In this document: positions 18,729 through 27,991 of the stretch, piece after piece
How positions within the stretch are numbered: the first letter of the stretch is position 1
Layout: each line of letters begins with the position of its first letter
Origin: Campylobacterales bacterium
Lineage (GTDB): Bacteria; Campylobacterota; Campylobacteria; Campylobacterales; JALSKU01
Direction: 5' to 3'
Assembly: GCA_026988685.1 (NCBI GenBank)
Contig: JALSKU010000200.1
Location: forward strand, 1 to 37,623
DNA length: 37,623 nt
The notes under the pieces: generated by a model
The model's database searches: none
Seen by the model: only the letters and a program-made list of their open reading frames with translations
Told to the model about the DNA's origin: nothing
Program-made: the position numbers and the translations under genes

Positions 18729-19418
18729 GTGAAATTTTATCTAAAAAAGCTAAAGATATATGATATTGATAAAACTCTTGTCGATATATCTTTCTCTTTT
18801 AATGACTCTTTCGCACTAGTCGGTCAAAGTGGCAGTGGAAAAAGTTTAACTTTGAAGTCTCTTTTGGGCTTGATGCCTTCAAATCTGCAATATAAACTTG
18901 ATTATGAGTGGGAGCATAAGTTACAAAGAGGAATAACTGTCTCTTTAGTCCCTCAGAACCCCTTTACCTCATTATCACCTTTAACAAAGATAAAAGATAA
19001 CTTTTTTAGCGATGATTATGATGAACTTTTAGAGATGGTTGGTTTGGATAGTGCTTTGGCAAAGAGATTTCCAAGCGAGCTTAGTGGTGGGCAGCTTCAA
19101 AGAGTGATCATCGCTATAGCACTCTCTCACAATCCAAAACTACTTCTACTCGATGAGCCTACAACTGCACTAGATGGTGATACAAAAGAGCAGATACTGC
19201 AACTCATAAAGGAACTACAAGCCAAGCAAGGCTTTAAGATACTCTTTGTAACTCATGATATAAATGCAAGCCAAGTAGTTTGTAAAGAGATAGGCATTAT
19301 CAACGAAGGTAAAATTTTAGAAACAGGTAAAATTGACGATATACTACAAAATCCAAAAACAAGCTATACAAAAAAACTGATAGAGGCAAATTTTAAAAAC
19401 AGAGAGTTTAGATGTTAA
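18729..19418 (+). CDS. ABC transporter ATP-binding protein (GTG start)
   Basis: 229 aa with Walker A 'GQSGSGKS', signature 'LSGGQLQRV', Walker B 'LLLLDEP' and an H-loop 'VTHD'. No permease gene is adjacent. Confidence 0.85.
   Translation: MKFYLKKLKIYDIDKTLVDISFSFNDSFALVGQSGSGKSLTLKSLLGLMPSNLQYKLDYEWEHKLQRGITVSLVPQNPFTSLSPLTKIKDNFFSDDYDELLEMVGLDSALAKRFPSELSGGQLQRVIIAIALSHNPKLLLLDEPTTALDGDTKEQILQLIKELQAKQGFKILFVTHDINASQVVCKEIGIINEGKILETGKIDDILQNPKTSYTKKLIEANFKNREFRC
19389..19418 (+). repeat. Left copy of a perfect 30-bp direct repeat (AATTTTAAAAACAGAGAGTTTAGATGTTAA)
   Basis: Identical to 26052-26081 at all 30 positions. It covers the last 10 codons (the stop included) of the ABC ATPase gene. 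Confidence 0.95.
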
Positions 19419-19445
19419 CTGATGTTAAGAAAAGTTTATAGTTTT

Positions 19446-19468
19446 TTGTATATAATGACAATATACAA
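19446..19468 (+). promoter_or_regulatory. Candidate island promoter/operator: inverted repeat TTGTATAT-N7-ATATACAA overlapping a TATAAT -10
   Basis: The 8-bp arms at 19446-19453 and 19461-19468 are exact reverse complements. TATAAT sits at 19451-19456, about 21 nt upstream of the brnT start. Palindromes overlapping the promoter are typical of RHH-antitoxin autoregulation. Confidence 0.4.
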
Positions 19469-19476
19469 AAAAGGTT

Positions 19477-19800
19477 TTGATTTTGCAGTTTGATTGTTTG
19501 GATATAGAAAATATAAATGGTTTTGAATGGGATAGCGGAAATATTTTAAAAAATGAGGTAAAACATGGGCTGAAGTGGCAAGTAATAGAAGAGCTGTTTT
19601 TCAATGAGCCATTGGTTGTAATAGAGGATAAAAAACATTCAAGTGAAGTTGAGTGTAGATGTGCTGCTCTTGGACATATAGACAATGGTAGGTTAATAAG
19701 TGTAATATTTACCATAAGAAACAGAAAGATTAGAGTTATCTCCGCAAGAGATATGAGTAAAAAAGAGAGGAGGTTTTATGAAGAGTTTACCAAAGTTTAA
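19477..19800 (+). CDS. brnT: BrnT-family toxin (DUF497 ribonuclease toxin), TTG start
   Basis: 107 aa with 'FEWDSGNILKNEVKHGL' and 'IRVISARDMSKKERRFY', the two signature blocks of BrnT/DUF497. It overlaps brnA by 23 nt. Confidence 0.85.
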   Translation: MILQFDCLDIENINGFEWDSGNILKNEVKHGLKWQVIEELFFNEPLVVIEDKKHSSEVECRCAALGHIDNGRLISVIFTIRNRKIRVISARDMSKKERRFYEEFTKV

Positions 19801-20029
19801 TAATCAAAAAGATGAGATGGATTTTTGGGACAAAAATGATATTAATGACTATTTTGATCTTAAAAGTGCAAAGCTTGTAAAATTTCCAAAGTTAAAAAAA
19901 AGCACCAAAACTATATCGCTAAGACTACCTGAAGATATGATAGAGAAGTTAAAAGTTAGAGCAAATGCTCTTGATGTGCCCTATCAGTCTCTTATAAAAA
20001 TTTTATTGCAAAAAGAGTTAAGTGCTTAA
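19778..20029 (+). CDS. brnA: BrnA-family antitoxin (CopG/RHH-like)
   Basis: 83 aa with 'EMDFWDKNDINDYFD' and 'ISLRLPEDMIEKLKVRANALDVPYQSLIKILL', matching the BrnA pattern. Confidence 0.85.
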   Translation: MKSLPKFNNQKDEMDFWDKNDINDYFDLKSAKLVKFPKLKKSTKTISLRLPEDMIEKLKVRANALDVPYQSLIKILLQKELSA

Positions 20030-20032
20030 AAA

Positions 20033-23000
20033 ATGATAACGAAAACAAATTTCAAATCACTTCTTAAAAAATTAGATTTTACTCAAAATGGTGACATTTT
20101 TATAAAAAAATTTGAAGAGTTTGATTGTGAGCTAAGAGTTGATTTTAAAAACCAAAAGTTGATCTATCCGGAAAACAAAGGTTTAATAGTAAATGATAAA
20201 ACCACTTCAAACTTCTCAAGCCATGAAAATTTTGTAGTTTACGAAGCGGTGCATAGACTACTTACTCAAGGGTATAAGCCAAACCATATAGAGCTTGAAA
20301 AGAAGTGGCAATTAGGTCATACTCAAAAAAGCGGTAAAGCTGATATAGTTATAAAAGATAATGCTGATAAAATTATACTTATAATTGAGTGTAAAATAGC
20401 AGGAAATGAATATAAAAAAGCTATAAATATACTTGAAAATGATTCAAGAAATCAACTCTTTTCATACCTTCAACAAGCTCCAACTACTAAATTTTTAGCC
20501 TTGTATTCGAGTGATTTTTGTGATGGAAAAGTAGAGTATGATTATTATCTTGTAAATGTAACAGACAATAAAGAATTACTCCAAAACAATCCTAAACTAA
20601 AATCATATAAAGAAGCAAAAACTGTAGAAGAAAAATATAGAGTATGGATAGAAACTTACGGTAAAGAGTATGCAACTATAGGGCTTTTTGAAGATAATAG
20701 AGCTTATGAAATTGGTAAAAATAGGTTTAGTATAAAAGATTTAAAAAGTGTTAGCATCAAAGATATACAGGGTAAATACCACCAGTTCGCAACTATTCTT
20801 AGGCAACATAACATTTCAGGTCGTGAAAATGCTTTTGATAAGCTCATTAATCTTTTTTTATGTAAAGTAACTGATGAGATGGAAAATCCTAATGATCTAA
20901 AGTTTTACTACAAAGGCATGGCCTATGATGACCCTTTTAGTTTCCAAGATCGACTCCAACAACTTTATAAAATAGGAATGGAGAAGTTTTTAGAAGATAA
21001 GATAACTTATATAGAAAACAAAAAAATTGATGAAGCTTTTGGAGTTTTTAAAGATAAGCCAAATGTTACAAAAGAGCTTATAAAGAACTATTTTAAAGAG
21101 CTAAAATTTTTTACAAATAGTGACTTTGCTTTTATAGATGTACATAATGAAAAACTTTTTTACCAAAACTTTGAAGTTCTTTTGAAAGTTGTTAAAATTT
21201 TTCAAGATATGAGGTTAACAGGAAGTGAAGAGAATCAATTTTTAGGAGATATGTTTGAAGGTTTTTTGGATCAAGGAGTCAAACAAAGTGAAGGGCAGTT
21301 TTTTACACCACTTCCAATAGTAAAATTTATAATCAACTCTTTACCAGATTTAGAAAAACCAAATGTCATTGACTATGCTTGCGGAGCGGGACACTTTTTA
21401 AATGAGTATGCAAATCTAAACAAAGATAGTTACATAGTAGGAGTTGAAAAGGAGTATCGTTTAAGTAAAGTAGCAAAAGTTAGCTCTTTTATGTATGGGC
21501 ATAACATAGAGATAGTTTATGCCGATGCTCTAAGTTCTCATAACAAGATAAAAGAGAAGAGTTTTGATTGTCTTGTATCAAATCCACCATATAGCGTAAA
21601 GGGTTTTTTAACAACATTAAGTAAAAAGGATAGAGAAAATTACGAGTTAATAGACGATGTAGATGTAAAAAGCTACTCTAAAACAGGAGCCATAGAGTGC
21701 TTTTTTCTTGAAAGAGTTTGTCAACTTTTAAAAGAAAATGGGATTTCTGGAATTATAGTGCCAAGCTCCATACTCAACAAAGATACTCCAAAACTATACA
21801 CTACAACAAGAGAGATAATTTTAAAATATTTTGATATAGTTGCCATTGTTGAGTTTGGAAGCGGTACATTTGGAAAAACCGGCACAAATACAGTAACACT
21901 TTTTTTAAAGAAAAGAGAAGAGGAGTATCTCTTTGAACACTATGAAAATATGATAAATGAGTGGTTTAATGGTGATTTTAAGATAAATGAGATTTTTAGA
22001 GATGAAGATAAACTAAAAGAGTATTGCAAATATCAACAAATTGATTTTAGTGCTTACAAACAGTTACTTTGTAATGAGCTTAATAGTGAGCTTTTTAAAA
22101 ATGAAACTTTTAGCGAATATAAAAAAGCTTTTGAAAAATCGAGCCTATTAAAAGAGCTAAAAAAGAAAAGATATTTTAAAGAGTTAGGCAAAATTGAGCA
22201 AGAAGAGAGAATAGAAAAAGAGCTTATAGCTTTTATAAAAACAATCGAAAAAGATAAACTACTCTACTTTATGTTGGCAAGTTTCCAGAGAAATGCAGTT
22301 GTGATAGTAAAATCTCCAACTTCTAATAGTGAGATAAAAAAATTCTTAGGATATGAGTGGAGCGGTAGAAAAGGGGATGAGGGGATAAAGTATATAACAA
22401 AAGAGAGTATAAGAGTCGATGAGAACTTAGATGAAGATGATAAAAGAGTGCTTGAAAACCTACAAGGTATAAAATATATAGATACTCCACTTTATAATCC
22501 ACAAAATTTAGATGATAACTTGAAAATAAATAAGATCATAAAAGATAATTTCGAATATGGAAAGTTTAATATACCAGATAGTTTAAAAAAATATGTAAGC
22601 AGTGCAAAGCTCGTTGATATGCTGGATTTTAGCAGGGTAGAGTTTAACAAGGCTATAAATTTAAACCCTACTAAAAAGGTGGAAACAGAAAGTAAGTGGG
22701 AGTTGGTTAGACTTGGAGATGTAGCTGATATATTGATAGTAGGAACACCGTCAAGAAATAAACCAGAATATTTTAATGGTAATCATCTTTGGGTTTCAAT
22801 AGCAGAAATAAATAATCAAATTATAACTAATACTAAAGAAAAGCTTTCAGATGATGGTGTAAAAAATTCAAATGTTAAACTTATACCTAAAAACACTACA
22901 TTATTGAGTTTTAAACTATCAATTGGAAAAACTGCTATTGCTGGTAAAGATTTATATACAAATGAAGCTATAGCTGGACTTGTTATAAAACAAGAAATAA

Positions 23001-23791
23001 AAGAAAAATTAACTGATAAATATTTATTTTATTTATTTAGTTCTGGAATTATTAATTTAGATAAAAATAACTTTAATGCTTTTGGAAAAAGTTTAAATAG
23101 CAAATTTCTGAAAAATGAAGTAAAAATCCCACTTCCGCCACTTAATATCCAAGAAAAGATAGCAAAAGAGTGTGAAGAGATAGACAAGATTAGCGAAAGT
23201 TTAAGAATTGAAAATGTTGAGTTAAAAGAGAAGATAGAAAGAAGTTTTAATGAGATTTATAATATTGCAACTGAAACCGTAAGATTAAGCGACGAAGAGA
23301 GTTTTGAAGTTTTCATAGGAAAAAGAGTGCTTTCAAAAGATATAGGCCAAAACCAAAATGATGGTATTCCTGTATATAGTGCAAATGTTTTTGAACCATT
23401 TGGATATACCAAAAAAGAGTTTTTAAAAGATTTTTCAAAACCTTCTGTATTGTGGGGTATAGATGGGGATTGGATGGTAAATATATTGCCAAAAGATACT
23501 CCATTTTATCCAACCGATCATTGTGGAGTTATAAGAGTTAAGAGTGATGAAATTGAACCAATTTATCTTAAATTTGTACTATATAAAGAGGGCTTAGAGC
23601 AAAGATTTTCAAGAAGTAACAGAGCATCTACTGCAAGAATAAAATCACTTACTATAAAAATACCATCAAAAGATATACAATATAGTTTTTCTAAAAAAGT
23701 CAATGAATTTGAAATAAAAATTAACCAAAACCAAAAAATTATAGAGAGTAGCAAAGCAAAAAAAGAGGAAGTTTTAAAAAAATGGCTATAA
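20033..23791 (+). CDS. Single-chain restriction-modification-specificity enzyme: N-terminal PD-(D/E)xK nuclease (HsdR_N-like) + gamma-class N6-adenine methyltransferase (HsdM-like) + two HsdS-type TRDs. AloI/CjeI-like Type IIB/IIG architecture, no ATPase motor
   Basis: 1252 aa. Nuclease motif 'GKADIVIKDNADKIILIIECK' (D104...E119-x-K121; nt 20342-20395). Methylase motif 'GQFFTP' (aa 421-426), motif I 'DYACGAGHF' (aa 447-455) and motif IV 'NPPY' (aa 517-520; nt 21581-21592). HsdS-like TRD1 starts 'KWELVRLGDVADI' (aa ~888) and is followed by the conserved spacer 'IPLPPLNIQEKIAKECEEID'. TRD2 runs from aa ~1081 to ~1205 with the second conserved spacer 'IKIPSKDIQYSFSKKV'. No helicase/Walker motifs are seen. 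Confidence 0.85.
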   Translation: MITKTNFKSLLKKLDFTQNGDIFIKKFEEFDCELRVDFKNQKLIYPENKGLIVNDKTTSNFSSHENFVVYEAVHRLLTQGYKPNHIELEKKWQLGHTQKSGKADIVIKDNADKIILIIECKIAGNEYKKAINILENDSRNQLFSYLQQAPTTKFLALYSSDFCDGKVEYDYYLVNVTDNKELLQNNPKLKSYKEAKTVEEKYRVWIETYGKEYATIGLFEDNRAYEIGKNRFSIKDLKSVSIKDIQGKYHQFATILRQHNISGRENAFDKLINLFLCKVTDEMENPNDLKFYYKGMAYDDPFSFQDRLQQLYKIGMEKFLEDKITYIENKKIDEAFGVFKDKPNVTKELIKNYFKELKFFTNSDFAFIDVHNEKLFYQNFEVLLKVVKIFQDMRLTGSEENQFLGDMFEGFLDQGVKQSEGQFFTPLPIVKFIINSLPDLEKPNVIDYACGAGHFLNEYANLNKDSYIVGVEKEYRLSKVAKVSSFMYGHNIEIVYADALSSHNKIKEKSFDCLVSNPPYSVKGFLTTLSKKDRENYELIDDVDVKSYSKTGAIECFFLERVCQLLKENGISGIIVPSSILNKDTPKLYTTTREIILKYFDIVAIVEFGSGTFGKTGTNTVTLFLKKREEEYLFEHYENMINEWFNGDFKINEIFRDEDKLKEYCKYQQIDFSAYKQLLCNELNSELFKNETFSEYKKAFEKSSLLKELKKKRYFKELGKIEQEERIEKELIAFIKTIEKDKLLYFMLASFQRNAVVIVKSPTSNSEIKKFLGYEWSGRKGDEGIKYITKESIRVDENLDEDDKRVLENLQGIKYIDTPLYNPQNLDDNLKINKIIKDNFEYGKFNIPDSLKKYVSSAKLVDMLDFSRVEFNKAINLNPTKKVETESKWELVRLGDVADILIVGTPSRNKPEYFNGNHLWVSIAEINNQIITNTKEKLSDDGVKNSNVKLIPKNTTLLSFKLSIGKTAIAGKDLYTNEAIAGLVIKQEIKEKLTDKYLFYLFSSGIINLDKNNFNAFGKSLNSKFLKNEVKIPLPPLNIQEKIAKECEEIDKISESLRIENVELKEKIERSFNEIYNIATETVRLSDEESFEVFIGKRVLSKDIGQNQNDGIPVYSANVFEPFGYTKKEFLKDFSKPSVLWGIDGDWMVNILPKDTPFYPTDHCGVIRVKSDEIEPIYLKFVLYKEGLEQRFSRSNRASTARIKSLTIKIPSKDIQYSFSKKVNEFEIKINQNQKIIESSKAKKEEVLKKWL

Positions 23792-24663
23792 ATAAGTTTG
23801 GTGGGAATTGGACAGAAACTAAACTAAATATTCTTGGAAAATATTTAAGTGCATACACCACTATACTAAAAAAGTATAATTTTAAGATAGCTTTTATAGA
23901 TGCTTTTGCAGGAACAGGGTATATTGAAAACAAACAAAATACCGATGAAAATCTATTGTTTGAATTTGAGGAAACTAAAGAGTACATAAAAGGTTCAGCA
24001 ATAGTTGCATTAGAAACAAAGCCTTGTTTTGATAGATATATTTTTATAGACTTGAATAAAAATAATTTAGATAATTTAAAACAAATAATTAATGAAAAAT
24101 TTTCAAATAAAAAAGATAATTGCATATTTTACAATGATGATGCTAATATAGTTTTAGAAAAATTGTGTAATAAAAATTGGCAAAGACATAGAGCTATAGT
24201 ATTTTTAGATCCTTTTGGAATGGAAGTAAAATGGCAAACAATAGAATCTATAGCTAAAACTAAAGCAATTGATTTATGGATTTTATTTCCATTTGGTATA
24301 GGTGTTAATAGATTACTTACAAATGATATATCAAAAATGCCTTCATCTTGGGAGAAGAAATTAAATGATATATTTGGAACAGATGAATGGAAAAATACTT
24401 TTTATAAAACTACTGTAGAGCCTTCTTTATTTGGTGAATTTGAGAAAACAAGAAAAGTTACAAATTTTAATAAAATAGCTCAATTTTATATTGACAGATT
24501 AGAGTCTATTTTTGTAGGAGTTATTGACAAACCTATGTATCTTTGTAATTCAAGAAACAATCCTTTATTTTTATTCTGTTTTGCTTCGGGAAATGAAAAA
24601 GGAAGTAAAACTGCTATTAAAATAGCAAAAAATATAATGGTTAAAGAAATGGGGTTAAAATAA
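23782..24663 (+). CDS. tcmP: Three-Cys-motif partner protein TcmP (TIGR04474-like); Rossmann/methyltransferase-like motifs
   Basis: 293 aa. The N-terminus 'FGGNWTETKLNILGKYLSAY...IAFIDAFAGTGY' matches my recollection of the TcmP family. It sits next to a DUF5131 gene, the family's defining context. The ATG overlaps the R-M-S stop by 10 nt. Confidence 0.7.
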   Translation: MAINKFGGNWTETKLNILGKYLSAYTTILKKYNFKIAFIDAFAGTGYIENKQNTDENLLFEFEETKEYIKGSAIVALETKPCFDRYIFIDLNKNNLDNLKQIINEKFSNKKDNCIFYNDDANIVLEKLCNKNWQRHRAIVFLDPFGMEVKWQTIESIAKTKAIDLWILFPFGIGVNRLLTNDISKMPSSWEKKLNDIFGTDEWKNTFYKTTVEPSLFGEFEKTRKVTNFNKIAQFYIDRLESIFVGVIDKPMYLCNSRNNPLFLFCFASGNEKGSKTAIKIAKNIMVKEMGLK

Positions 24664-24664
24664 A

Positions 24665-25369
24665 ATGAATAAAACAAAAATAGAATGGACTGAGAGCAGT
24701 TGGAATCCGATTACTGGATGTACTAAAATAAGTGATGGATGTTTAAACTGCTATGCTGAAAAAATGGCATATAGACTTAAAACAATGGGAACAAAAGGAT
24801 ATGAGAATGGTTTTGAGGTAACATTACAATACCATCAATTAGAAAAACCGCTTAAAATGAAAAAACCTCAAATGATTTTTGTAAATTCTATGAGCGATAT
24901 ATTTCATGAAGATGTTCCAGATGATTATATATTAAAAATCTTTGAAATTATGGATCAAGCTTCTTGGCATATTTTTCAAGTATTAACAAAAAGACCAGAA
25001 AGACTGAAATCACTAAAAGATAAAATAGTATGGACGGATAATATTTGGATGGGAACTACTATTGAAAGTAATAAATATATAAATAGAGTAGATTTTATTA
25101 AAAACACTAATGCAAAAATAAAATTTATATCTTTCGAACCTTTATTAAGTAGTGTTAAAGATGTTGATTTAAGTGGAATTGACTGGGTAATTGTAGGGGG
25201 TGAGAGTGGAAGCGGAGCAAGAATTATAAAAAAAGAGTGGGTATATGAGATAAGAGATAAGTGTGAAGAACTAAATATTCCTTTCTTTTTTAAACAGTGG
25301 GGTGGAACAAACAAAAAGAAAAATGGAAGATTGCTTGATGGAAAAATTTATGATAAGATACCTTTGTAA
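24665..25369 (+). CDS. DUF5131 (Pfam PF07505, 'phage Gp37/Gp68') family protein with a three-Cys motif
   Basis: 234 aa with 'KIEWTESSWNPITGCTKISDGCLNCYAEK' (C19-x6-C26-x2-C29), 'DWVIVGGESGSGAR' and 'FFFKQWGG', the characteristic blocks of this family. It starts 1 nt after the tcmP stop. Confidence 0.85.
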   Translation: MNKTKIEWTESSWNPITGCTKISDGCLNCYAEKMAYRLKTMGTKGYENGFEVTLQYHQLEKPLKMKKPQMIFVNSMSDIFHEDVPDDYILKIFEIMDQASWHIFQVLTKRPERLKSLKDKIVWTDNIWMGTTIESNKYINRVDFIKNTNAKIKFISFEPLLSSVKDVDLSGIDWVIVGGESGSGARIIKKEWVYEIRDKCEELNIPFFFKQWGGTNKKKNGRLLDGKIYDKIPL

Positions 25370-25387
25370 ATATTTATATTATAATAA

Positions 25388-25458
25388 CCACTGCCTTAAA
25401 TTCTCAGCAGTCTGTAGTCAGTAATCACTATGTAGTTAAGTGGAATTTAAAGAAGTGG
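25388..25458. terminator. Imperfect 16-bp inverted repeat downstream of the DUF5131 gene (possible terminator, processing site or structured leader)
   Basis: CCACTGCCTTAAATTC (25388-25403) pairs with GAATTTAAAGAAGTGG (25443-25458), 14/16 complementary, with a 39-nt loop. There is no clear U-tract. Confidence 0.25.
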
Positions 25459-25539
25459 GATGTAAAAGTAGGGAGTTGAATTTATGGATGAGATATTACA
25501 GATAAAAATTTTAAAATTATCAAAAAAAGTAAAAAAATT

Positions 25540-26034
25540 GTGATAGATAATTTTGAAAGTGAAAGTATAATAGATAAAAATATTGATCCGGAAGTTGTTA
25601 TTGGAGAGCTTATAAATCTAACTGAAAAGCTATCCTCTGCTATTCAAACGCGAGCAGAGACTTTTGATAAAAGATATAATAATGAAGATGAGATGTTACA
25701 TGAAATTAAAATATTTTTTGAAAAGCTTAATTCATATATTGAAAAAATTACAATGATATTTATTGATATCAAAACCAATTTGGATGATACTTTATCTAAA
25801 TTATTAGCATTAAAATATGTTGAGAAAATTTTATGTGATTATTTAATTTGGTGTGAAAAGTTAGAAAATGCGATATTGGGGTTAGGTAGCACTGAAGTTA
25901 TATTTAAACCAGATGTTAAGATAGAAAACAGAATTTTTAGCTATGCCTCAGAGAGACTAATCAAACATAATGATTCTTGGCTTTTGCCATTTGTTGGCGG
26001 GATAGGATTGGGATTTTTATTGGATGATGGCTAA
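25540..26034 (+). CDS. Hypothetical protein, predicted helical with a C-terminal hydrophobic tail anchor
   Basis: 164 aa with a GTG start and no SD. No recognisable family. The C-terminus 'WLLPFVGGIGLGFLLDDG' looks like a single TM/tail anchor. It lies inside the island, just before the right direct repeat. Confidence 0.45.
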   Translation: MIDNFESESIIDKNIDPEVVIGELINLTEKLSSAIQTRAETFDKRYNNEDEMLHEIKIFFEKLNSYIEKITMIFIDIKTNLDDTLSKLLALKYVEKILCDYLIWCEKLENAILGLGSTEVIFKPDVKIENRIFSYASERLIKHNDSWLLPFVGGIGLGFLLDDG

Positions 26035-26051
26035 TTTTGCAGTATCAAGGT

Positions 26052-26081
26052 AATTTTAAAAACAGAGAGTTTAGATGTTAA
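26052..26081 (+). repeat. Right copy of the perfect 30-bp direct repeat
   Basis: Identical to 19389-19418. It contains the SD-like AGAGAG and the mrcA ATG (26075). Confidence 0.95.
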
Positions 26082-27991
26082 AATATATCATTTCATTTAT
26101 CTTTATAGTTGTTATCGGAGTTTTTGCTTTTTTGCTTAAAACTTACTCGGATATAAGGTTTGAGGCTTATAAGGTTATCAACTATGAGCCCGATTTGACT
26201 ACCAGGATCTTTGATAGAAACGGAAAGCTTATAGCCAATATTTTTGGAAAACATAATAGAGTATATGTCAAATACAAAGATATACCCCCAAGAGTGATAG
26301 AGTCTTTGGTGGCTATAGAAGATACTCTCTTTTTTGAGCACAGCGGGATAAATCTTGAGGCGATTTTTAGAGCAGCTATAAAAGATATAAAGGCTATGAA
26401 GTTTGTCGAGGGTGCCAGTACTCTTACTCAGCAACTTATAAAAGATACCTTGCTAACTAGAAACAAGACGATCTTGAGAAAGATAAAAGAGGCGCTCTTA
26501 GCCATTAGGGTTGATAGCGCTTTAACAAAAGAGCAGATCATAGAGAGGTATCTAAACCAGGTATACTTTGGTCATGGTTATTATGGTATCAAAACTGCGG
26601 CTTTAGGCTATTTTCATAAAGAGCTAAATGAACTTAGTTTAAAAGAGATAGCCATACTTGTTGGTCTTCCAAAGGCCCCAAGTGCCTACAATCCTGCCAA
26701 ACATATGGATCTTTCACTTGCCAGAGCAAATATGGTGCTTGATAGGCTCTACAAGCTTGGCTGGATAGATGCAAAACAGTATGAAAAATCACTAAATGAA
26801 CGACCGTTAGTATATGACGATACCCTAACTCAAAATGTTGCTCCCTATGTTACGGATGAAGTTGTCAAGAGACTATCAAAAAAGTATAAAGATTTAAAAA
26901 CCGGTGGCTATAAGATATATACAACTATAGATCTTGATGAGCAGTTTTTGGCAAAAAAAGCTTTGAAGTTTGGGTATGACGGTATCATTAAAAGAGATAA
27001 AGATATAAACTCTACATTAAATGGCGCTATGGTTGTGATGGATAATCATACCGGAGAAGTGTTGGCAATGGTTGGCGGGGTTGACTATAAAAAGAGTAGT
27101 TTTAACAGGGCTACTCAAAGCAAAAGACAACCGGGATCCAGCATAAAACCTTTCATATATCAGATAGCGCTAAACTATGGCTACAGTGAGGCAACCAAGA
27201 TAGCCGATATATCAAGAGTTTATGAAGATAAGATAAAAAATAAAGATTGGAAACCAAGAAATTATGAGAATAACTTTGAAGGATTGATAACACTTGAAGA
27301 CGCACTTGTTCACTCAAGGAACTTGGCCACTATAAATCTTGTAAATGATTTGGGTCTTGAAAATGTCTATAAAAATCTAAAATTTTTAGGTTTTAAGGGA
27401 GTTCCCTATGACCTTTCAATCGCTCTTGGTAGTTTTGGCGTCTCTCCGTATGAGTTTGCCGGTAAATACACTCTCTTTTCCAACTATGGAGAGATGATGA
27501 AGCCACTACTTATAAAAAAGATTGTAAACAGGTTTAGAGATATGGAGATTTACAAGCCTCAGGGCAAAAAGATAAATGAGCCTAAACAGGCGTATTTGAT
27601 GATAGATATACTAAAAAATGTTGTTTTAAGGGGTACGGGAAGAAATGCCAGGATAAAAGGTATAGAAACAGCAGGAAAAACGGGAACCACCAATAACTAT
27701 ATAGATGCTTGGTTTTGCGGTTTTACTCCTGATATAGAAGTGATCACCTGGTATGGACATGATGACAATACACCGATGAAAAGAAGAGAAACAGGTGGAA
27801 GAGCTGCTGCTCCGGCTTTTAACTACTTTGTCTCAAACTATCTTGCAATCCACCCTGAAACAAAAAGAGAGTTTAAGATACCAAAAGGTGTCGATAAATT
27901 TGTTAAAGATGGAAAAACATACTACTTTACGGATATTTCAAAACCTCCAAAAGAGGGCAACGGTGATAGTAGCAGTAAACTTATATTTTAG
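26075..27991 (+). CDS. mrcA: Penicillin-binding protein 1A (bifunctional glycosyltransferase/transpeptidase)
   Basis: 638 aa with an N-terminal TM segment. GT51 motifs are 'EDTLFFEHSGIN', 'GASTLTQQL' and 'RKIKEA'. Transpeptidase motifs are 'SSIKPF' (SxxK), 'SRN' and 'KTGTT'. Confidence 0.92.
   Translation: MLKYIISFIFIVVIGVFAFLLKTYSDIRFEAYKVINYEPDLTTRIFDRNGKLIANIFGKHNRVYVKYKDIPPRVIESLVAIEDTLFFEHSGINLEAIFRAAIKDIKAMKFVEGASTLTQQLIKDTLLTRNKTILRKIKEALLAIRVDSALTKEQIIERYLNQVYFGHGYYGIKTAALGYFHKELNELSLKEIAILVGLPKAPSAYNPAKHMDLSLARANMVLDRLYKLGWIDAKQYEKSLNERPLVYDDTLTQNVAPYVTDEVVKRLSKKYKDLKTGGYKIYTTIDLDEQFLAKKALKFGYDGIIKRDKDINSTLNGAMVVMDNHTGEVLAMVGGVDYKKSSFNRATQSKRQPGSSIKPFIYQIALNYGYSEATKIADISRVYEDKIKNKDWKPRNYENNFEGLITLEDALVHSRNLATINLVNDLGLENVYKNLKFLGFKGVPYDLSIALGSFGVSPYEFAGKYTLFSNYGEMMKPLLIKKIVNRFRDMEIYKPQGKKINEPKQAYLMIDILKNVVLRGTGRNARIKGIETAGKTGTTNNYIDAWFCGFTPDIEVITWYGHDDNTPMKRRETGGRAAAPAFNYFVSNYLAIHPETKREFKIPKGVDKFVKDGKTYYFTDISKPPKEGNGDSSSKLIF

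Follow-up and report, generated by a model that had tools for sequence, protein, structure and literature searches.

The DUF5131 protein encoded in a 37,623-nucleotide stretch of DNA from a Campylobacterales bacterium (GenBank assembly GCA_026988685.1, contig JALSKU010000200.1, positions 1 to 37,623 of the forward strand; hereafter the window) is probably a radical S-adenosylmethionine (SAM) enzyme that carries a [4Fe-4S] cluster and belongs to a clade related to spore photoproduct lyase, as judged from sequence comparison and a predicted structure. An earlier note on this DNA had described the protein as radical-SAM-like on account of an unusual cysteine triad, and that description is borne out by a homologue that bridges the family to canonical radical SAM proteins, by a barrel-shaped structural model and by a published classification. 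Directly upstream lies the gene for TcmP, and our best guess is that the reaction is radical chemistry on a nucleic acid, most likely DNA. The gene and the elements within it on which the assignment depends are as follows.

24665..25369, plus strand: DUF5131 (phage Gp37/Gp68 family) gene, 234 amino acids, identified by PF07505, by PDC-M41B and by an AlphaFold2 model
24719..24751, plus strand: codons of C19-x6-C26-x2-C29, predicted to ligate a [4Fe-4S] cluster, on the loop that joins strand 11-13 to helix 30-40
24887..24898, plus strand: S75-M76-S77-D78, after strand 70-73, the probable positional equivalent of the canonical GGE motif
24986..24994, plus strand: T108-K109-R110, at the end of strand 103-108, with K109 aligned to its putative counterpart K174 of spore photoproduct lyase
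25196..25204, plus strand: G178-G179-E180, closing strand 174-180 (sixth in order), placed by AlphaFold2 secondary structure and conservation

The open reading frame of 234 codons holds up at the coordinates first reported for it, and PF07505 (Pfam DUF5131) covers its product over the full length (E = 2e-96; 322.6 bits, cut-off 28.9), with residues 3-233 matching profile positions 1-243 of 243. The closest database relative is 87% identical, and the protein is an ordinary, intact member of DUF5131 that nothing sets apart from its family. Counting positions confirms the triad as C19-x6-C26-x2-C29, inside ITGCTKISDGCLNCYAEK (residues 16-33), and likewise confirms that a single cysteine lies beyond it; this residue is C200, where the earlier note gave C145. 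Two further placements are corrected here: the GGE-containing stretch DWVIVGGESGSGAR spans residues 173-186 rather than 163-176, and FFFKQWGG, previously taken for the end of the protein, occupies residues 207-214 and is followed by 20 more residues.

Classification of DUF5131 as a radical SAM family is already in the literature. The RadicalSAM.org paper lists DUF5131 as the superfamily subgroup Megacluster-5-2, with spore photoproduct lyase (5-3) and MJ0683-like proteins (5-1) as its neighbours, and gives CX6CX2C as the Megacluster-5-2 motif (PMC9477430). The triad of the window protein fits this published variant, and the core observation of a radical SAM class with CX6CX2C spacing is correct, yet already published; the NCBI name of TcmP, 'three-Cys-motif partner protein', mirrors the same observation. 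New in our analysis are the bridge through radical SAM mobile pair protein A, the AlphaFold2 barrel model and the fold match to spore photoproduct lyase as support for the radical SAM assignment. The DUF5131 clade is a sister of the spore-photoproduct-lyase/COG1533 group.

The bridge is provided by a sister family that retains the canonical cysteine spacing. The window protein matches TIGR04471 (radical SAM mobile pair protein A) with E = 1.3e-28 and 100 bits against an equivalog cut-off of 355, which makes it a relative of that family and not a member. A mobile pair protein A from a Bacteroides plasmid (WP_004329299.1; L094:3465-4130) has matches to PF07505 (E = 2.8e-33) as well as to PF04055 Radical_SAM (33.2 bits; threshold 29.5), and aligns with the window protein by BLASTP at E = 7e-28, with 29% identity over about 200 residues. 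This alignment sets GCT---IGCPYCYA of mobile pair protein A, a canonical CX3CX2C, against GCTKISDGCLNCYA of the window protein, and the window triad can therefore be described as the canonical motif with a three-residue insertion. The two proteins also share the GMSD/SMSD, LTKRP, WMG, FEPL and IDW..G.E.G motifs. By contrast, mobile pair protein A has CX3CX2C, carries GTE for GGE, lacks C200, passes the Pfam Radical_SAM threshold and has as its partner another radical SAM protein, mobile pair protein B, in place of TcmP. On the same Bacteroides thetaiotaomicron plasmid (L094:2692-5005), protein B has lyase/COG1533-like motifs and a gene for a metallo-β-lactamase (MBL)-fold hydrolase precedes the A/B genes; the A/B pairing shows the same enzyme core provided with another kind of partner.

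Structure prediction places the triad where radical SAM enzymes carry theirs. An AlphaFold2 model built with 120 homologues (mean predicted local distance difference test score (pLDDT) 90; predicted TM-score (pTM) 0.87) shows a predicted topology of strand 11-13, cysteine loop 14-29 and helix 30-40 followed by six strand-helix units, a predicted β/α barrel with the cysteine loop after the first strand, as in the radical SAM fold. A fold search, proposed earlier as a check, points the same way: the top five Foldseek matches in the Protein Data Bank (PDB) are all spore photoproduct lyase (E = 8e-4 to 1.4e-3, probability 1.0), so that a radical SAM enzyme heads the solved structures, with designed TIM barrels, NifB and DesII among the lower matches. 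Of the 50 best fold matches in viral models, a dozen or more bear the names of radical SAM or Fe-S proteins. The lyase (PDB 4FHC and related entries) resembles DUF5131 in that the triad, the S/D after strand 2, the T-K after strand 3 and the x-P after strand 5 align, and in that neither has a strict GGE; the lyase acts on DNA. It differs in its CX3CX2C spacing, its length of 341 amino acids, its extra N-terminal domain and its C140, which is Ser in DUF5131. Neither PF20903, the lyase N-terminal domain, nor PF04055 matches the window protein, which places it outside the lyase family itself.

The motifs of the window protein are kept throughout a very large family. Searching 1.84 billion representatives of 50%-identity clusters recovered 38,270 DUF5131 clusters at E ≤ 1e-3 and 7,462 at E ≤ 1e-30, and conservation was read from the best 150 representatives, which are 42-59% identical to the query and were mapped onto it. 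Within the triad the counts are 146/146 for C19 and 147/147 for both C26 and C29, and the x6 spacing is kept in 140 of the 146 representatives in which the motif was found. Conservation is similarly strong at G178 (146/148), G179 (143/149) and E180 (146/149), at S75 (145/151), M76 (146/151) and D78 (151/151), and at T108 (151/151), K109 (150/151) and R110 (149/151), and E134, R141, E158, P159, R186 and K210 are also near-invariant. Because they are conserved across distant representatives, these motifs are real family signatures, beyond chance. Ten DUF5131 representatives (P0287, P0299, P0311, P0331, P0343, P0353, P0357, P0358, P0361 and P0362) carry insertions of 50-190 amino acids, located at two places that recur among them (about 120-125 and about 166-170 in the profile), which may be inteins or inserted domains.

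In canonical radical SAM enzymes the GGE motif follows strand 2, about 45 residues past the triad, and binds the SAM amino group. The earlier note had read the GGE of the window protein as a GGEP-type motif of this kind, a reading that does not survive: G178-G179-E180 lies on the sixth strand, about 150 residues past the triad, and its position rules it out as the canonical amino-group motif. When four DUF5131 proteins, two lyases and mobile pair proteins A and B are aligned with MAFFT, the columns of G18, C19, C26, C29, D78, T108, K109, N126, R141 and P159 are invariant. The lyase counterparts in this alignment are C90/C94/C97 for the triad, D143 for D78, T173-K174 for T108-K109 and P235 for P159, and the window GGE aligns with lyase Q271-H272-R273 and with the GTE of mobile pair protein A. 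Spore photoproduct lyase manages without a strict GGE, its SAM amino group being bound by S142 and D143, while K174 and S195 orient the SAM carboxylate and the backbones of A234 and R273 touch the adenine and ribose of SAM (PMC3467042). By this comparison SMSD (75-78), which aligns with lyase S142/D143, is the probable equivalent of GGE in DUF5131, and GGE 178-180 may border the SAM pocket as a strand-6 element. The earlier note was right on the enzyme class, plausibly right on the partner and wrong on the GGE.

The remaining cysteine was considered as a fourth ligand of the cluster. C200 is kept in 128/139 representatives, with V, A, S or T in the other 8%, and the sister family has Ala at this position; in the model C200 falls close to the C-terminal end of helix 190-203. 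In a β/α barrel the C-terminal end of a helix points away from the barrel mouth, and by this topology C200 would therefore lie away from the mouth too. Its variability, the Ala of the sister family and its place toward the far end of the helix make C200 an improbable cluster ligand, and it was rejected as one.

The gene directly upstream encodes TcmP, a predicted SAM-binding protein with two recognizable motifs.

23782..24663, plus strand: TcmP (three-Cys-motif partner protein), 293 amino acids, A component of PDC-M41, identified by TIGR04474
23899..23919, plus strand: TcmP motif I, D40-A-F-A-G-T-G46, the SAM-binding glycine loop of class I methyltransferases
24202..24222, plus strand: TcmP motif IV-like, F141-L-D-P-F-G-M147, to be compared with (D/N)PP(Y/F) of amino-methyltransferases

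TIGR04474 (NCBIfam TcmP) matches this open reading frame at E = 1.8e-59, with 201.9 bits against a cut-off of 53, and the gene is adjacent to the PF07505 gene, its stop codon ending at 24663 and the DUF5131 start lying at 24665. Pfam holds no family for TcmP, and PDB sequence and profile searches with TcmP gave chance-level matches, no solved methyltransferase being matched by sequence. The AlphaFold2 model of TcmP (pLDDT 85), which has a low-confidence or disordered 27-residue insert (43-69) after motif I, matches 49 class I SAM methyltransferase chains in Foldseek at E ≤ 1e-3, predicting a class I fold. The best TM-scores fall in the RlmJ/DUF519 group, and an RsmD-like protein was also matched (Foldseek TM-scores for 2oo3, 0.43/0.46 and for 6qe5, 0.41/0.43; 2fhp also matched). 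Within motif I, D40, A41, F42, A43, G44 and G46 are invariant among 66 homologues and T45 is kept in ≥90%; within the motif IV-like element, F141, L142, D143, P144 and M147 are invariant in the same set and G146 is kept in ≥90%. The motif I pattern occurs in 119/119 close TcmP homologues and in 52/61 partner proteins at other loci, and the motif IV-like pattern in 112/119 close homologues. TcmP thus resembles the RlmJ/DUF519 and RsmD-type amino-methyltransferases in its predicted Rossmann methyltransferase fold, in the D-x-F-x-G-x-G form of motif I and in having D-P-x-G where they carry (D/N)PP(Y/F). It differs from them in the insert after motif I and in the degeneration of motif I in PantheRoc gp41 and other phage copies; the sequence match to RsmD is weak (E = 0.003), and any methyl transfer by TcmP is putative.

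Linkage of the two genes extends well beyond the window. Among 78 genome loci from many phyla, including Methanoregula, a TcmP-superfamily gene lies ≤2 genes from DUF5131 in 55, of which 27 are of the TcmP type and 28 of a type of about 370 amino acids. By hhalign the ~370-aa partner type is a homologue of TcmP (probability 98.3%, E = 1.6e-14); it shares the motif IV-like element in that alignment and has an additional C-terminal GMT-like winged helix-turn-helix (wHTH) domain. In one protein of 558 amino acids (P0267) DUF5131 and TcmP are fused, the TcmP profile matching at E = 1.6e-69. The proposal that TcmP is the SAM-binding partner of the DUF5131 protein is indirectly supported by the predicted class I fold, by motif I and by this fusion.

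The pair recurs beside or within restriction-modification systems (Type IIG, Type I and Type III-like), and DUF5131 proteins are also found joined to DNA-binding domains. The pair stands behind Type IIG/MmeI-type enzymes at four loci (L003, L005, L008 and L048), beside Type I HsdR at three (L016, L040 and L085), between a Res helicase and a Mod methylase at two others and probably a third (L066, L084 and likely L063), and behind an N6/N4 methylase in L007, where the pair is followed by a gene for an HhH-GPD glycosylase. By a seed-based count from ten seed proteins, to be read as a lower bound and not as a frequency, restriction-modification neighbours occur in 9/78 loci. In L042 (1038-5602) a protein of 985 amino acids that contains a reverse transcriptase domain is encoded 8 nucleotides upstream of TcmP-DUF5131, and in L006 the pair stands alone between housekeeping genes. 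Two proteins are ParB_N+HTH_ParB+DUF5131 fusions (P0284 and P0293). DUF5131 as a whole ranges over many bacterial phyla, archaea, 180 phage genomes and 443 plasmids; phage copies often lie beside DNA methyltransferases, and in Gordonia phage PantheRoc the pair sits between the integrase and immunity repressor genes. The ParB and wHTH fusions and the restriction-modification context suggest a nucleic-acid substrate, in keeping with the action on DNA or nucleotides put forward in the earlier note.

Further observations concern individual loci. At L066 (1774-9365) and L084 (3848-11515) a ResIII helicase of about 1000 amino acids and an N6_N4 DNA methylase of about 900 flank the pair on one strand. 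In L001 (6971-8732) the DUF5131 protein is 71% identical to the window protein and is preceded by a SIR2-like protein in place of TcmP, and three more unannotated genes complete the tightly overlapping operon. The ParB-type N-terminal fusion is also known from phage and plasmid DNA methyltransferases. The record of phage phiE125 gp37 (L093) notes similarity to Mycobacterium tuberculosis Rv2734, a possible DUF5131 protein; mitomycin C is reported to induce Rv2734 as part of a cluster that includes Rv2735c, recX and recA (PMC5057432).

Within the window, the pair closes a tightly packed, co-oriented run of genes (BrnT, BrnA-like, Type IIG, TcmP, DUF5131) in a region of low G+C (GC) content.

19400..26050, no strand: island of low GC content (25-30%; flanks 36-41%)
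19477..19800, plus strand: BrnT toxin (PF04365, E = 1.7e-22)
19778..20029, plus strand: likely BrnA-type antitoxin open reading frame, 83 amino acids, suggested by position and sequence only
20033..23791, plus strand: Type IIG restriction-modification enzyme, 1252 amino acids, with nuclease, N6 methylase and specificity parts

The flanks of the island are housekeeping genes (alaS, maf, an ABC ATPase, PBP1A and glnA), and the island sits between the maf/ABC-ATPase genes and PBP1A; given the difference in GC content from these flanks, it is best described as a small acquired island. The Type IIG protein matches PADLOC REase_MTase_IIG at E = 0 over profile positions 1-1269 of 1271, contains the Pfam domains N6_Mtase, Methylase_S, Eco57I and HSDR_N_2, and its gene overlaps the start of TcmP by 10 nucleotides. 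Both components of the PADLOC phage defence candidate PDC-M41 are present, adjacent and matched end to end (PDC-M41A, E = 5.2e-111 for TcmP; PDC-M41B, E = 7.5e-114 for DUF5131). The PDC collection goes back to genes found within BREX, DISARM and Type I systems (Payne et al., bioRxiv 10.1101/2024.01.29.577857). The two window genes are adjacent, co-oriented and next to a restriction-modification gene, the kind of embedding by which PDC-M41 and PDC-M30 were defined; unlike in the founding cases, the neighbour is a Type IIG enzyme.

An orphan open reading frame of 164 codons follows DUF5131 inside the island (25540-26034, plus strand), with a GTG start and a hydrophobic C-terminus in its product. 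Searches of Pfam, NCBIfam, PADLOC and PHROGs found nothing like it, and it is not kept 3′ of DUF5131 at other loci, a 74-aa open reading frame lying there in L002-L004. A BrnT-like toxin also occurs near the DUF5131/TcmP-like pair of Gordonia phage PantheRoc (L091:933-1169), and the proximity of BrnT in both places may be coincidence or a shared habit of defence islands. Scanning for promoters and terminators was uninformative in this AT-rich DNA: 50 promoter-like sites were found against 38 expected, and the terminator scan of 23782..26200, from the TcmP start to past DUF5131, found none, a result that is itself uninformative at this base composition.

We propose that DUF5131 and TcmP act together on a common target. 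C19, C26 and C29, carried by the loop that follows barrel strand 1, would ligate a [4Fe-4S] cluster whose fourth iron would bind SAM, in a pocket lined by S77/D78 (strand 2), K109 (strand 3) and E158-P159 (strand 5) as putative counterparts of the lyase residues, and perhaps also by G178-G179-E180 after strand 6. The DUF5131 enzyme would work with TcmP, encoded one base upstream, whose probable role is to bind SAM and to present the substrate (most likely a DNA base); this base would then undergo radical modification or repair-type chemistry. The pair is a mobile two-gene module that associates with restriction-modification systems, the same module as PDC-M41; its enzyme would bind a cluster, cleave SAM and act on DNA, and may serve in defence. 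What the analysis shows is membership of the family, conservation of the motifs, the predicted folds, and the linkage and fusion of the genes; cluster binding, SAM cleavage, a DNA substrate and any part in defence are inferred. A more specific version, which we put forward only tentatively as a possibility, is that TcmP flips out a DNA base and DUF5131 acts on it radically, creating either a new DNA modification or a deliberate lesion in foreign DNA, as a portable accessory that turns up again and again within SAM-dependent Type I, IIG and III restriction-modification systems and has been borrowed by phages.

Several points weigh against the assignment of DUF5131 to radical SAM enzymes and against its proposed action with TcmP. 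PF04055 Radical_SAM gives no match to the window protein itself at E ≤ 0.01, and the link of the protein to that family is transitive only, because the match belongs to the aligned mobile pair protein A. PDB searches with the protein sequence and with the DUF5131 profile returned chance-level matches and no radical SAM enzyme, and Foldseek TM-scores to spore photoproduct lyase reach only 0.45-0.53. Comparing the DUF5131 profile by hhalign with the lyase sequence and with a 34-sequence lyase alignment of low diversity (Neff 1.7) gave a probability of about 1% and P of about 0.05, which is not significant; these alignments were used solely as a motif map and agree with the MAFFT alignment. The aromatic position of CxPhiC is N28 in the window protein and is Asn or His in 130 of 147 representatives (N 92, H 38, F 8, Y 4), and no canonical GGE follows strand 70-73 (β2), where SMSD (75-78) stands instead. 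All pocket assignments rest on distant alignments and strand order and are limited to that extent. As for the pair, about 16 of the 78 loci lack a TcmP-type partner and most phage DUF5131 copies have none that can be detected, so that TcmP is not obligatory. According to their authors, the 145 PDC systems are candidates (bioRxiv 10.1101/2024.01.29.577857). A search of the literature on DUF5131, TcmP, Gp37/Gp68, PF07505, TIGR04474/04471 and PDC-M41/M30 found no functional study.

Some of these points could also be accommodated if the triad were a structural or DNA-sensing metal site, holding Zn or a [4Fe-4S] cluster like that of endonuclease III/MutY, in a barrel that acts on nucleic acid without radical chemistry, as a hydrolase, a lyase or a glycosylase. 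In endonuclease III and MutY the cluster loop is C-x6-C-x2-C-x5-C, with four Cys ligands, and the C-x6-C-x2-C of DUF5131 equals its first three cysteines. The missing direct Radical_SAM match, the missing CxPhiC aromatic and the missing GGE after strand 2 suit such a site, and generic TIM barrels, phosphodiesterases and AP endonuclease 2 proteins are found among the weak fold matches. However, the position five past C29, where the fourth cysteine of that loop belongs, is A35, and an endonuclease III-type loop is excluded because residue 35 is Ala; the sole other cysteine, C200, is absent in 8% of relatives, replaced by Ala in the sister family and predicted to lie away from the barrel mouth. 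A clear homologue has CX3CX2C and scores above the Radical_SAM threshold, the top-ranking solved fold belongs to a radical SAM enzyme, and we consider a non-radical metal site unlikely. An enzyme that is radical in its chemistry could instead be a DNA-repair lyase like spore photoproduct lyase, reversing a lesion or adduct in a damaged base flipped out by TcmP. That lyase is the closest solved fold and a neighbouring clade in RadicalSAM.org, and the HhH-GPD glycosylase gene downstream of the pair in L007 would fit a repair function. A further lead is the mitomycin C response of Rv2734, to which the phiE125 gp37 record notes similarity. DUF5131 nevertheless has S75 where the lyase has its hydrogen-donor C140, lacks the lyase N-terminal domain, and is found among mobile elements, restriction-modification systems, toxins and prophage immunity regions, not in repair operons; we judge a repair lyase to be quite unlikely.

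The substrate might also be a small molecule and not DNA, with the pair serving as a defence effector that makes a viperin-like modified nucleotide or that senses or consumes SAM under phage depletion of it. Type I, IIG and III restriction-modification systems, all represented among the neighbours of the pair, use SAM, both proteins of the pair are predicted SAM binders, the pair is a PADLOC defence candidate, and a SIR2-like protein takes the place of TcmP in L001. Such an effector is hard to reconcile with the DNA-binding ParB/HTH and wHTH fusions, with a TcmP fold closest to nucleic-acid amino-methyltransferases (RlmJ, RsmD-like), or with the 180 phage genomes in which DUF5131 often lies beside DNA methyltransferases, and DUF5131 has no similarity to viperin; a small-molecule substrate seems very unlikely to us.

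Which reaction the pair catalyses is a question that belongs to the whole family and not to the window alone. The locus adds nothing new to the family; it offers a compact, intact example in which Type IIG, TcmP and DUF5131 form one apparent operon that could be cloned as a unit. DUF5131 is among the largest radical-SAM-type clades without a known reaction, and, if it is true that the pair modifies or damages DNA radically, this would be a new reaction for DNA epigenetics or phage defence.

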